From Euglena gracilis (lineage: Eukaryota): a stretch of DNA of 35,279 bases. Below are positions 19,501 to 25,500 of the stretch, one piece after another. Numbering within the stretch: the stretch's first letter is position 1; the number at the start of each line of letters is the position of its first letter. The position numbers and the translations under genes are program-made. The notes under the pieces are model-generated. The model saw only the letters and a list, made by a program, of their open reading frames with translations, ran no database searches and was not told where the DNA came from. Location: the NCBI GenBank assembly GCA_039621445.1, contig CP154954.1, forward strand, positions 5,193,955-5,229,233. The letters are read 5' to 3'.

Positions 19501-22500
19501 GGTGTTGTGGTGTGTGGGATGGTGTGCGTGTGCGTGTGTGCGTGTACGGTGTGTAACATGTGAATGAGCATGTGGCCTCGGACAACTCATCAAATAGGTG
19601 GGCAATTGTCACCCCACCGTGCTGGGGAGGGTACTGCCTGTGGGGTCCAGGCAGCCAGCCGTTTGCAGCCCCCCCCCCCCCCTGGACACGGGCATCCCAA
19701 CACGCAGACATCCCCCGGTCATGCAATGACTGCCCCGGCGTGGGGTGACTCTGCGGGTTATCCCACGCTGACACTCCCCTCACCTGTTTTCAGGAGCGCA
19801 CCAGAGCGAACCGTCTTCTACCTGGCGGCTCCCTGGACCGGCAACGGGGCCTTGGCCCGCGTGGACGTCCGCAGCCAGGTGTGAACTGGGGTGGACTAGA
19901 GTAACATTTCATGGGTGGGTTTGGTCCCGAAACGTTAGCCTTTTTTAAAAAAGCCAGGTTGGGTGGGTAGAATCATCATTTGAAAAGAATTCACCTGGAA
20001 ATCTCTCCACTGAGAAAATCAGATGACCCAGAGAAGAGCGCGCAACGAGCTAGAGAAGGCTCATTCAGGCGCAGGACAGACAGGAAGTTTTCCGGTTAAA
20101 ACGAAATTTCAAGTTTGAGAGGTATCAATTTTGTCAAAAAATCGGCAAAAAATCCTGACAAGTATTTTGGCGTGATGGCCTTGATTTAAGACCATACCAA
20201 TCAGTTCAAGGTTGGCGCTCAGCAGTATTCTGGGTCATCATGGTTTCACATAGGATACGTGGATGCGGGCAGGTAAACCTTCCTCCTGGAAACTGTCATG
20301 GCTGTAAATCTCTGTAAGGGTCTCGCCTTGCTACATATGGACAGATTTTTTTGAAAGAAACCATGTTGTGGTGCATCTCTGTGGGATTCCATCAATCTCC
20401 TGAAGATGTAGTGGGTTCCTGTCTGAGCGCAAGATCATCCAGAATCCTGAAATTCACAGAAGGTCCGCATACCGTCCCTGGGCCACGGGGACTCAACTTC
20501 CCTTTTTCACAGGCGATCCTTCCTCCCAAGGAGACAAAGGAGGACGCTGCCAGCCCGGAAGGTGTCGGCTTCTTATGCGGCTTCTTATGTGCCGTGACGC
20601 TGAGGTTCGGAGGGCGTCACAGCCCCGCCCCTCGGGTTTCCTTGGCATAGTCTCCCCCCCCCCCTGTCCAAGACACACCGTGTCGTTGACAGCCCCCCCC
20701 CCCGTGTCAATTGCACTTTTCCGGAACATCACCTGAGGTTTTTTTCATTTAATTTCAGTGGCGTTGGCGCGCTGTGTCGTTGATGCCCCCCCCCCCGTGT
20801 CAGCAACGCATTCCCTGAGCATTTGGTGTGGGGGGGTATTTTCCCAGCAATGGTCTGTTTGAGCAGGATCAGTTTTTTTTTTCTGTTCCCCTCAGCCTTT
20901 CTCCAAACCTGGCCCTGGGAGGACCCCACAAACCCATCTAATTTCCAGGTGAGCCACCAGGCGTTATCCCCCATGCGTGAACAAGAATGAAGAAGCCTGT
21001 AAAGTTTTTTTTTTACGTGCGTGAATTTCGATGTGAAGTGATACCCCCCAACCACACCACCAACTTGCAATTTTACACCTTTTCAGCATGATTTGCATTA
21101 CGCATGTCTGTTTTTTTCTATTTGAAAGTTTATATTAACACCCACCTCCTCCTCTGTGTAACTTTCCACGTGGAACGTTGACACCTCCGTCCAAACTGTC
21201 GTCAGGTGATGAGTTTGAAAAAGCAAAAAGCACACACCAAAGCGTGGACTCTTTCTTTGGCTGAGAATAAGACAGCATGAAAACCATTGAAATGGCATAT
21301 GACGACATAAACAAACCGAGTGGGTGTTCCTGGTCGTATTTCACCCTGTCATAAACAACTTTTCAGGGGTGCCTGTCCTACCCCTGAGAAATTACCTTCA
21401 TCCAATACACCCACTGAAAATCAGGAGGTCCAAGCACCGCCATTTTTGGATTTTTATTTCCAAGGGGGGTGAAGAAGCGCACCCCCCCCCCCGACACTGC
21501 TGCGCCGACCCGTTCCTGTGTAGGTTCTCAAAGGGTTTATTTTGTGTGTGGTTTTGCGAAGTGCCGGTTTTTTTTTTTGCAGTGTCCCCCCCTTGTCTAC
21601 GCATCAACTCCTGGTTCTTACCCATCTGTAGACGGGGAGGGGGTTGGGTGGGATGTGCAGACAGCGGCTCCCCCGACACTTTCTCCCACAGGCCCTGAGG
21701 CAGAAGCCCCGAAGGCTGAGCCCCGGGACCCAATGGAGGAGGACGCCCCCGCGGACGGCGACGGACAGGGCTGGATGCAGGGGGGGGGAATGCGCTGCGC
21801 ATTTTTGCGCATTTTTTTTTGCGCGTTTTTGTCAATTTTTCAAAAATGCGCATTTTTGCGCATTTTTACGCATTTTTTGCACATTTTTTTCCCGAGGGCC
21901 GTCCAGTGCACTGCTGGATGGGAGCCCCCTGAGCAGGGTTAGGATGTTGCTCCATAGGTGGAGTCTCTCGAGCCCCCTCGAACGACCTCAAACGGCATTC
22001 GAGGATGCTCAACGAGTTTGTTTGTTCAAAGGAGGCTCGAGAGCCTCTTTGAATGTCGTTCGAGCTCGTTTGAGCGTTTGAGGAGGCTTGAGACCCTCCT
22101 CAAATGTCGTTTGAGGTGGTTTGAGGAGGCGTGTTTAAGCCTACCCCCCGAAGGGGGCTTAAAAACGTTCAAGGATGCACCAGCTCGAACGTTCGAGCTC
22201 GGCTCGTCTTCCCAGCTCGGACGACCCCCCACAGGAGCCCCAGAAGTGCCGTGGGGGTGGGTGAGAGGGGTGTCCAACCCCCACCCCTGTTGAGAGTTAA
22301 ATCCCCTGAAGGCACTGATTTCCGGGTCAAAAAAGCCGCAAGTTTGTTTTGCATGGCAACCCCCCCCCCCAGCCCAATGAGCACCAAAGTGACAATCTCG
22401 ACGGCCTGGACGGTGGACGCTCATTAGGCATGGTCCGGACACCCTCTGTTCACTGGCAAGGGGTTAATAAGACATGGGGGCATTGTGGGGGGGGGGGGGG

Positions 22501-25500
22501 GCGGAACGGTCCCGGCATGGCCTTCCCGTTCGGCCCTGCCGCCGGAGACCTCGAGGAGGAGGTCGACAGAAAGGAGCCACCGCTGGCCAATGAGGACGCC
22601 CAGCCGGAGACGTCAGAAGGAAACACACAGGCTGTGGCCCGCCGGCGTTGTATCCAGGTCGCCAGTGCGCGATGGGGGGAGGGGGGCACACCATTCCATT
22701 TATTTTGAACTCCCAATTTGGGAACTCTGAAAATTCCAAATCTCAGATTATTTGGAATTGTACCAAACAATGGCTCACCGTTTGTGTCTTCACAGCCCAG
22801 TTCTATTAGTTTTCCTTTTATTTTGTCGCTCCGGCCTTTTGTTGGCTGCCAACCAAATTGGGGCGCATTTTCATTTGCGGATTTCATTTGCAGCTGTCCA
22901 GAAGGCATGCACACAACTTACAGTGATCTTTTTATCTGCAGTGTAAATTCAAAAATACGGGCCACCACCCAGGGATGTCCAGTGACCCAACAGCCAACCC
23001 AGCAAATGCAAAATTTGTTCAACAAGCAGTTAGGGTTAGGGTTAGGGTTAGAGTTAGCGCCAGGGTCAGGGTTAATTCACCCCAACCTGAACCCTCCCCC
23101 CCCATGTCCAATTAAACCGCCCGTTTTCACCTGTTCGTTGGGGTGGGGGGGGTAGGGGGGGGGGCTGCCCCCGGCAACCTTTCACTTTCTGACCCCCCCG
23201 TAACCCACTTCGGGGCTGCAGCCTGCCGCTGCGCCAGAGCCCCCGACGAACCCCGCTGCAGACGCGGAGGGCTCCTCAGCGGGGCGGCAGTCACCGGACG
23301 CGATGGTGATGGACGCGGAGGCGGAGGGGGCGTGCGAGGGGCTGGCCGACCCGCCCCCAGCGGAGGGGCCCGAGGAGCCGGCCGTGGAGGAGGGGGCGGT
23401 CAGGCACGGCGATGGGGAGGAAGAGCAAGGTGCCTCTGCGCGTGCGTGTGCGTTTGCGCGTGTACGTGCACGCTCGTGTGTGTTTGTGTGTGTGCTTTTT
23501 GTGGCTTTCTGTCTGTGTGTGTGTGCGCGCGCACGTTGTGTGTATGTTTACGTTTGTGTGGATGGTGAATCGATCATCAAGCGTTTTTTTTTTATTTTGG
23601 TACCGCAGCTTTCCGGATGAAACGCTTAAAAAAATAACGAAAATAACGAAAGTTCCCCCCCCCCCCCCGCCCAATGGCCACCTCTATTTATCGACAGTCC
23701 CCCAGTCTGGGGTTGTAGGTCAGGGGGTGGGTATGACCCCCCCCTTGATCGGGGGTTGTGGGAACCCAGACTGTGGGCACCGGGGGAGAAATATGTATTT
23801 GAACAGTTCTCGACCAGCTCAAGAAAATGCCAGAATCTTCCAAAGAGCACCAATTCTTTCTCCGGCACAGAACCACCACGCAGGACATTGATCAATTTCC
23901 TATGGGACGCATGATCGGTGTTCTTCGTTTTTTTTTTTTTATTGTCCACCAACCAATGCTGAATGTGTTGGTGGGTCCCCGGTGGGTGTGGGGGTGGGGG
24001 GCGGAAGGTACGGCTTTCTTTGGGCTGGCGACGGGGAAGAACCAATTCAGGGTAGCAATTTTTGTTTCGGTAGGAACGGAGTGGACAGGATGTGATGTAG
24101 TCTTTGCGTTGTCCCCTCCCTTCATTTTCCACAGAGGCCCCCGAGGATGCGGACGCAAAGCCTTCAAAAGAGGCGGAGGAAGAGGAGGTGGCAAAAGAGG
24201 CGGAGGAAGAGGAGGTGGCGGCAACCACGTCCAGAAGCCCAGGTCCGCTTGTTCATTATTCACTATGCACGCTCTTGCCGGGTTCCTTTGGATTCAGACC
24301 AATAGGGGTACTGCGACCCATGCGCACACACAGCATACGTACAGCATACGCACGCACGCACGCACGCACGCACGCACGCACGCACGCACGCACGCACGCA
24401 CGCACGCACGCACGCACGCACGCACGCACGCACGCACACACGCACGCACGCACGCACGCACGCACGCACGCACGCACGCAAACACACCATTCGCAATGAC
24501 ATTGCATGCCATACATACGCACAGGTACAGAAACAAACAGCAGTGTTCTCATGGGCTGCTGGCCCAAGAAGTCAGACCCGGAATTTTTTAAAATTAATGG
24601 ACAAAGACGACGTGACAACAGGGGGCTTGGTTTGTTTATTTTTTTTAGCACCGGATCAGGAATTTTTATTTTGGGACATTTTGGTTTGTTTGGTTTGTTT
24701 GTGGTTTTTTGTTGTTCTATCCCCCAGCGACTTCCGCGAATCTGTCTTTGGGCCTAATTTTCCTATTTAGCCAATTTTTTATCTATTTTCTGGCCGACAT
24801 GTTCCATCCTTTCAGGATCATGATGTCCCCCCAAAAAAACTGCAAAATTCATGTTTTTTGACATTCCTGTTACACCTGGACCGCCTAAATCTAAAGTAAG
24901 CTAAATCTAAAAGTAAATGTTTAAAATTGTCGTGAATTTTGACCTCGCCCCTCCACCAAAAACAAATGTGTCGTTGATTCCACATTTCTGGAACATCCTC
25001 ATTCTGGAGGAATATTCTGCCAAAGCTTAGAAGTTGCCTTCGGGCACCAATTCTGTGAACCAGGAACCCGGATCAGCATCGTTTCCGGCATCCACGCAAC
25101 TTGAGCTAGCAGCTAGAAAAGTGTTGAGACCATTCGAGGAGACCAACCCAAGATACAGGATATAAAAAGTTACAAACAACAAAAGCAGTGACCTGATCGG
25201 AGGACACTGCAATGATAAAATGGGAAGTGTCAACGACACGTTTTTTTTTGCCAATTGAACGATACTCACACCCTGTGACTCCAGGAACGTGTGTGTCTTA
25301 ATTGCGTCTTAATTGTCTTAATTATGTCTTAATTGCGTCTCAATTGTCTTAATTGTGTCTTAATTGTGTCTTAATTGTGTCTTAATTGTGCCTTAATTGT
25401 CTTAATTGTGTTTTAATTGTGTCTTATTGTGCCTTAGTTGTCTTAATTGTGTCTTAATTGTGTCTTAATTGTGTCTTGATTGTGTCTTAATTGCGTCTTA

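Follow-up and report, generated by a model that had tools for sequence, protein, structure and literature searches.

A MITE-like repeat family as a candidate source of a 3′ splice-site arm in a nonconventional intron of Euglena gracilis

A nonconventional (NC) intron of Euglena gracilis, at 21763-22543 of the window analysed here (the whole stretch of 35,279 nucleotides (nt) from assembly GCA_039621445.1, contig CP154954.1, positions 5,193,955 to 5,229,233 of the forward strand, read 5′ to 3′; all coordinates below are those of the window), ends in a 20-nt splice-site arm that has near-identical copies at positions that are not splice sites. We propose, with a probability of roughly 0.6, that this 3′ arm was supplied by a family of elements resembling MITEs (short for miniature inverted-repeat transposable elements). 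The proposal is carried by the arm's homology to free copies, which the splicing code fails to explain, together with a complete free element (28044-28412, hereafter E28) that bears inverted ends and a flanking repeat.

The intron as a splice unit

The window was mapped with P0001, a 1195-residue protein from a eukaryotic transcriptome collection, retrieved via the frame at 26364-26888, labelled an E. gracilis transcript by a source and carrying a DBC1 domain. Using tblastn and a junction solver, we placed residues ~165-1195 along the full length of the window (+ strand), interrupted by 30 introns; all intron evidence below is thus this transcriptome-derived protein, not reads. Given this mapping and the DBC1 domain, the window is, on sequence grounds, most of a gene for a putative CCAR/DBC1-like protein from E. 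gracilis or a very close strain; the window's own frames give a DBC1 Pfam match just below the cut-off (E 5e-6; 26.9 bits, cut-off 27.2) and a weak LAIKA match. A few residue differences between the window exons and P0001 (e.g., N for D in ...EPPT[N/D]PAAD; sites 23231-23250, 27984-28013 and others) fit another allele or strain.

Euglenid NC introns, which make up 71.8% of introns in E. agilis, follow the code 5′-N3CDG.../...CH'GN5-6|R (Nomura et al. 2025, PMC12501133), and a model for them has been set out (Milanowski et al. 2014/2016; PMC3935182, PMC4770533). Sorted by the published code, the 30 introns comprise 15 NC, 10 GT-AG and 5 unclassified introns, the last including 9417-9690, in which CAG and CTG are present and the spacers sum to 7. 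The studied intron and its borders are as follows (TSD, target-site duplication).

21692-21762, + strand: upstream exon, P0001 residues ~791-814, ...EAEAPKAEPRDPMEEDAPADGD; placed by tblastn and junction solving, preceded by conventional intron 20562-21691
21763-22543, + strand: NC intron, 781 nt; P0001 junction with 0 mismatches, slides over 21762..21766
21758-21765, + strand: GCGACGGA, the 8-mer immediately 5′ of CAG; forms the left half of the TSD-like pair, 6/8 identical to 22539-22546
21766-21785, + strand: 5′ arm, CAGGGCTGGATGCAGGGGGG; pairs with the 3′ arm, family-like in its first 8 nt only
22519-22538, + strand: 3′ arm, i.e., the 20-mer; CTG at 22536-22538, followed by spacer CCGCC at 22539-22543
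22539-22546, + strand: CCGCCGGA, the 8-mer immediately 3′ of CTG; forms the right half of the TSD-like pair, 6/8 identical to 21758-21765
22544-22624, + strand: downstream exon, GDLEEEVDRKEPPLANEDAQPETSEGN; identical by tblastn (100%) to P0001 residues 815-841, the next intron being 22625-23230 (NC)

Across the junction P0001 reads ...EEDAPADGD|GDLEEEVDRKEPP... (...APADGD|GDLEEE...), joining the two exons, and the 781 nt of 21763-22543 are therefore removed as a genuine intron. The acceptor foreseen for the exon at 22544 in the original prediction, made from the sequence alone, agrees with this junction at 0 mismatches; the intron foreseen there is the same one, counted as 19th in that account and mapped here as the 20th in the window. 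Because CGGA stands at both borders, five junction registers (21762..21766) yield the same mRNA. Only the register 21763-22543 fits N3-CAG...CTG-N5|R (GGA-CAG...CTG-CCGCC|G), none of the five offers GT/GC-AG borders, and the first base of the following exon is a purine (G at 22544). The ends are also strongly paired: the duplex between the first and last 30 nt reaches -35.0 kcal/mol (joint lowest among the 30 introns), and the terminal stem is present in both the minimum-free-energy and the centroid fold of the whole intron (z -6.3; 0/20 shuffles as stable). All of the first 12 arm positions pair contiguously in the RNA, the three differences from a perfect inverted repeat within them all being transitions that keep G-U pairs. 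With its non-GT/AG borders, its CAG and CTG at their spacers, its purine and its paired ends, 21763-22543 is an NC intron and, as a splice unit, an ordinary one. In the pre-mRNA, the 5′ arm (CAGGGCUGGAUG...) would pair with the 3′ 20-mer and so bring the junctions together, whereupon the NC machinery would, per the published code, cut at a distance of 3 nt on the 5′ side of CAG and of 5 nt on the 3′ side of CTG.

A Pfam search of the frames overlapping the intron returned 0 families, and Rfam at the gathering threshold and a tRNA scan, both over the whole window, returned 0 and 0. Inside the intron, 21972-22130 forms a long imperfect palindrome (39-nt arms, 82% complementary) that helps to make the fold so stable and may be a hairpin element nested in the intron, and 22361-22418 matches 17059-17116 (-) in NC intron 16050-17842 (58 nt, 79%, E 1e-8), a dispersed piece unrelated to the 20-mer.

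Copies of the arm and a free element

The 20-mer GGCCTTCCCGTTCGGCCCTG (22519-22538) recurs as two direct copies, each 19/20 identical (2991-3010 and 18811-18830, both +), and as an inverted copy at 28044-28063 (17/20), as originally described; four matches at ≤3 mismatches compare with 0.01 expected in the window, and 0/100 shuffles give four. The start of the 5′ arm had likewise been equated with that of the inverted copy, and CAGGGCTG at 21766-21773 is indeed identical to 28044-28051. This shared 8-nt sequence is largely the general NC consensus, for which CCAGG has been reported (PMC11170887).

Among the 60 intron-end 20-mers of the gene (30 introns, two ends each), the studied 3′ arm is the only one with copies at ≤1 mismatch. 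In the other 14 NC-code introns, the corresponding 20-mers up to and including CTG agree with it at 5-12/20 positions; the splicing code therefore fails to explain the likeness. Stem nucleotides beyond CAG(G)/(C)CTG were described as conserved only among homologous introns (Milanowski 2016, PMC4770533), and between non-homologous introns the published logos retain CAG(G)/(C)CTG only (PMC4770533, PMC11170887). Furthermore, the inverted copy, which starts 29 nt inside the conventional GT-AG intron 28015-29223, runs antisense to the gene, such that its sequence is not attributable to splicing. The direct copies sit 664 and 199 nt from the 3′ ends of their host NC introns, and P0001 junctions reveal no splice-site use of those at 3010 or 18830. 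A position weight matrix (PWM), built from the four free copies only and scored on positions 9-20 (i.e., outside the generic CAGGG), was used to rank the 2026 20-mers starting with C[AG]G: the 3′ arm of 21763-22543 ranked 3rd, the 3′ arm of 9417-9690 14th and the 5′ arm of intron 10189-10765 34th, with all remaining NC arms at 124-1963.

The two direct copies were said to close a ~300-bp repeat inside other introns, and this is the case (~270-320 nt), both host introns being NC.

2691-3010, + strand: repeat copy 1, ending in the 20-mer at 2991-3010; has an insert of 58 nt (2933-2990) that copy 2 does not have; inside NC intron 2423-3674
18562-18830, + strand: repeat copy 2, ending in the 20-mer at 18811-18830; inside NC intron 17957-19029

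In masked self-BLAST, 2691-2972 and 18562-18854 are 77% identical over 299 nt (E 5e-53), and local alignment of 2691-2932 with 18562-18812 scores 149.5 (shuffle maximum 19). The 290 nt 5′ of the repeat and the 200 nt 3′ of the 20-mer are dissimilar between the loci (15.5, shuffle maxima 16 and 17). Since the flanks beyond both ends are dissimilar, the 20-mer lies at the distal end of the shared segment in each copy, and the pair, the only two copies from which this was judged, is consistent with a putative repeat terminus at the 20-mer, as had been claimed. From sequence comparison, the studied intron is not itself a copy of this repeat. Likeness between the copies may reach ~25-35 nt further upstream of the repeat, with indels, and a short open frame (~33 codons, then stop) at 18470-18570 enters the start of copy 2. 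A protein-database search with the open frame through copy 2, as a proxy for translated repeat copies, gave no candidate. When metagenomes were scanned for the 20-mer, one free position being allowed, 11 loci were returned and rejected as chance matches: similarity extends over 20-23 nt only and the flanks are unrelated.

Taking 28044 as a 5′ end, we searched downstream for a CHG preceded by 16 nt able to pair with the arm and followed by an 8-mer similar to the one in front of CAG. One candidate stood out, making the inverted 20-mer copy the 5′ end of E28.

28044-28412, + strand: E28, complete free element, 369 nt; 5′ end CAGGGCTGTACGGGAAGACC, 3′ end GGCATTCCCAGAAAGCCCCG; inside conventional intron 28015-29223
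28036-28043, + strand: left flanking 8-mer of E28, GGCTGGGG; 7/8 identical to 28413-28420
28413-28420, + strand: right flanking 8-mer of E28, GGTTGGGG; 7/8 identical to 28036-28043

A strict scan (at least 7/8 flanks, at least 12/16 arm pairs, within 3 kb) recovered E28 alone among 485 CAG sites outside the microsatellite. Because it lies within a conventional GT-AG intron and its CAG/CCG centre is unpaired, E28 is a free copy rather than a splice unit. Its inverted ends and flanking repeat would give added weight to a transposon origin of the family. Within E28, AT-rich and (AAAC)n microsatellites border a hairpin at 28209-28261 that is near-perfect, GGCAGGTGGGAAGTTTAATACCCCCC / GGGGGGTATTAAACTTCCCACCTGCC. 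A partner search of this kind found neither partner ends nor flanking repeats for the 3′ arms at 3010, 18830, 11880 and 3195 or for the 5′ arm at 28564.

A further intron carries family-like arms at both of its ends.

9417-9690, + strand: second NC-type intron, 274 nt; 5′ arm CAGGGCGCTGTACAGG, 3′ arm GTCTTCCTGAACAGCCCTG; junction with 0 mismatches, CGCGAC at both borders, spacers summing to 7, not 8

When the 5′ end of E28 is reverse-complemented, it is identical to the 3′ end of this intron at 33/40 positions (9655-9686 vs the reverse complement of 28075-28044, 84% over 32 nt), and the intron's own inverted ends agree at 14/16 with a 2-nt indel. Internally, 9484-9617 aligns with 3012-3142, directly after the first free copy (73% over 139 nt, E 2e-17), and 9611-9687 aligns with 2925-3011 (66% over 87 nt). 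Given that both arms of 9417-9690 resemble the family and that 139 nt of its interior are homologous to a free copy, the studied intron is not clearly what it was originally stated to be, the best local example of a splice site formed by a transposon end. A circular permutation between 2925-3142 and 9484-9687 was considered and dropped, 67 nt of the 5′ end of intron 9417-9690 being absent between the two modules in 2925-3142.

A terminal module of ~40-47 nt, consisting of the arm and a G-run/C-run hairpin, is common to E28, the free copy at 2991 and the introns 9417-9690 and 21763-22543. In the scheme we favour, the 20-mer and the ~25 nt of G/C hairpin preceding it would be homologous to the ends of a small MITE-like family in the window, with ends of roughly CAGGGCTGTACGGGAAGRCC ... 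GGYCTTCCCGTWCNGCCCTG; its members would include E28, complete and unspliced as such in a conventional intron, and 9417-9690, itself an NC intron. The window holds 4 strong and ~5 weaker family arms, of which three weaker free copies are listed.

11861-11880, + strand: weaker free copy of 3′-arm type, GGCATTCCTATTCAGCCCTG; in NC intron 11811-12100; nhmmer E 0.66, PWM rank 6/2026
3176-3195, + strand: weaker free copy of 3′-arm type, GGCATATCCGTACAGCCCCG; in NC intron 2423-3674; nhmmer E 6.3, PWM rank 8/2026
28564-28583, + strand: weaker free copy of 5′-arm type, CAGGACTGAACGGAAAGCTC; in conventional intron 28015-29223; nhmmer E 1, PWM rank 9/2026

A relaxed, non-specific scan also yielded, on both strands, a candidate free element at 11250-11513 in NC intron 10889-11605, with ends CAGGGG(T)9...(A)8GCCCTG, 13/16 arm pairs and 6/8 flanking 8-mers.

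Elsewhere in the window, NC intron 3711-9305 is filled for the most part by a 5.3-kb microsatellite (3931-9260; TGTATG-type unit, ~889 copies, 95% matches). (CACG)n / (ACGC)n arrays at 2110-2312 and 24348-24480, one in an NC and one in a conventional intron, are 86-92% alike by self-BLAST. NC intron 2423-3674 starts, at 2426-2452, with CAGGGGTGCCCCCCCCTTGAGCGGCCCTG, a 27-nt CAG...CTG mini-hairpin. In many NC introns of the gene the 5-nt spacer after CTG is C-rich (CCGCC, CCCCC, CCACC, CCTCC, CCGCT; e.g., 22539-22543, 10761-10765, 17838-17842), which hints at a 3′ consensus wider than CTG alone.

Competing accounts of the arm's origin

The origin we favour for the arm can be outlined as follows. 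An element with CAG...CTG inverted ends would enter an exon and make an 8-bp duplication; NC splicing would then take out the element plus one duplicate (3 + 5 = 8 nt), and the reading frame would be restored. An 8-bp rule linking insertion to splicing fits the 7/8 flanks of E28, the 6/8 flanks of the studied intron (GCGACGGA vs CCGCCGGA, which is the TSD-like match first pointed out in the original prediction) and a recently gained NC intron of E. agilis gapC with 8-nt direct repeats, for which break repair was proposed (PMC4770533). On this account, the whole of 21763-22543, and not just its 3′ end, may derive from an element of this kind. We put forward only tentatively, and consider rather doubtful, a broader view, namely that the NC splicing code is an RNA-level mirror of a cut-and-paste transposon with 8-bp TSDs and hAT-like CAG...CTG ends. 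On that view, E28, 9417-9690 and the 3′ end of the studied intron would be the first named source family, young enough for free and intronic copies to occur together, and most NC introns would be older members of such families.

Several observations weigh against the transposon origin. First, the likeness is partial. The studied intron resembles the repeats over its last 23-49 nt only, its 5′ arm (PWM rank 779/2026) is family-like over 8 nt only and agrees at 12/20 positions with its own 3′ arm in reverse complement, with 8 nt identical at the ends, and only 2-3 of the ~32 NC arms in the gene belong to the family. Second, the ends of E28 are only 13/20 identical, with the central CAG/CCG unpaired, and both ~300-nt repeat copies show no 5′ inverted partner or flanking duplication; lowering the thresholds to 5/8 and 11/16 still gave 0 candidates within 3 kb. 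Third, the flanking repeats are few. The 8-bp duplication rests on one 7/8 case (E28) and one 6/8 case (the studied intron), a 6/8 match is attained by 2/15 NC-code introns, and the flanking 8-mers of the 15 NC-code introns agree at 2.8 of 8 positions vs 2.5 in mismatched pairs (permutation p 0.23). Because a relaxed scan (6/8, 12/16) yields 37 (+) and 27 (-) pairs, mostly chance, the 6/8 match of the studied intron is weak alone. Finally, all copies found lie in one gene within the 35-kb window. The earlier statement that the intron end is a transposon end accordingly holds in part: the arm is homologous to free copies and E28 is complete, but the likeness stops 23-49 nt from the intron's end and the repeat copies have no partner.

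That restricted likeness is what would be expected if the intron existed beforehand and a family element, or the end of one, later landed near its 3′ border, the CTG arm becoming the 3′ pairing partner, so that only the 3′ end would be transposon-derived. The 5′ arm, which shares nothing with the family beyond the generic CAGGGCTG, and an interior made up of unrelated repeats and the long palindrome are in keeping with such a capture. However, the 6/8 match between the 8 nt before CAG and those after CTG fits a single insertion spanning both ends, and the fully paired first 12 arm positions, with their three G-U-keeping transitions, look like a decayed inverted repeat; we thus regard a late capture of this kind as unlikely.

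The shared segments could instead have spread among introns of the gene without transposition, be it through filler DNA used in double-strand-break repair, through template switching or through ectopic conversion, in which case the border repeats would be repair scars. The confinement of all seen copies to one gene points this way, as do the missing inverted partner and flanking repeat of the ~300-nt copies, the variable order of modules (2925-3011 then 3012-3142 vs 9484-9617 then 9611-9687) and the break repair already proposed for the gapC intron with its 8-nt direct repeats (PMC4770533). Such copying nonetheless fails to predict either inverted ends with an 8-nt flanking repeat, as in 28044-28412, or a copy in opposite orientation; moreover, the introns holding copies flank unrelated exons, which argues against segmental duplication. 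We judge this route quite improbable.

Convergence through function, whereby NC splicing would simply favour the 20-mer as a 3′ arm and selection would maintain the free copies as NC splice sites of a cryptic, alternative or nested kind, would account for the 5 nt and purine that follow both + copies, as the code asks, and for the recurrence of CAGG/CCTG and a C-rich 3′ spacer among the NC introns of the gene, but is very improbable given that the other 14 NC-code arms reach only 5-12/20, that published logos keep CAG(G)/(C)CTG alone between non-homologous introns (PMC4770533, PMC11170887), that one copy is antisense in a conventional intron, that no upstream partner arm was found for the + copies and that P0001 shows no use of them.

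Known systems and significance

As a splice unit, the studied intron shares with published euglenid NC introns its non-GT-AG borders, CAG at +4..+6, CTG at -8..-6, 3/5-nt spacers, the purine, paired ends and slidable borders with short direct repeats; there is no splicing difference. What its 3′ arm adds to the account given in the abstracts and passages of that literature is the existence of near-identical copies that are not splice sites. A MITE origin of NC introns was proposed with no family named (PMC3935182) and has since been repeated (PMC12501133, PMC11282704, PMC12621601), the 2014 authors noting that transposable elements had yet to be identified in euglenids (PMC3935182). With that hypothesis our case has in common putative inverted repeats at the ends, TSD-like border repeats and small, non-coding candidate elements (274, 369 and 781 nt); whereas the hypothesis, as presented in the passages of these papers, rested on general anatomy, the window offers a specific candidate family, which occurs free as well as at the ends of introns. 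In the abstracts and passages of the euglenid NC-intron literature we found neither a named transposon family at intron ends nor a statement tying the 3+5 spacers to an 8-bp TSD; the supplements may hold relevant intron tables.

Introners of Micromonas, dinoflagellates and Fritillaria (PMC11282704) are likewise described as non-autonomous elements, with terminal inverted repeats (TIRs) and TSDs, that turned into introns upon exon insertion, the TSD aiding exact removal. It is the spliceosome that excises introners, using GT-AG or variant sites (PMC11282704), whereas the studied intron uses the euglenid CAG/CTG hairpin code and has no GT/GC-AG register; and while introners are defined by many near-identical copies, the Euglena family is known here from one 35-kb window. 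The hAT MITE Mar of Drosophila willistoni has, as reported, an 8-bp flanking duplication, TIRs of 5-27 bp and a TIR start of CAG(G/A)GG (PMC3517528); the Euglena ends similarly start with CAGGG, with an 8-nt flanking match in one 7/8 and one 6/8 case and putative TIRs of ~20 nt. A transposase-encoding autonomous partner was absent from the 35-kb window, and by analogy with Mar an assignment to the hAT superfamily would be a lead only.

Ultimately, these observations are a lead toward a putative introner-like MITE family tied to a non-spliceosomal code, with support that is local, and lend concrete support to the published, unproven MITE hypothesis, as local evidence from one 35-kb window rather than a demonstration. 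The origin of euglenid NC introns has been a question since their discovery. Were it true that 3 + 5 = 8 equals the length of the duplication, this would explain the spacer lengths of the code, and a repeat family with the same ends on free TIR- and TSD-bearing elements and on working splice arms would make the MITE hypothesis directly testable on public assemblies.

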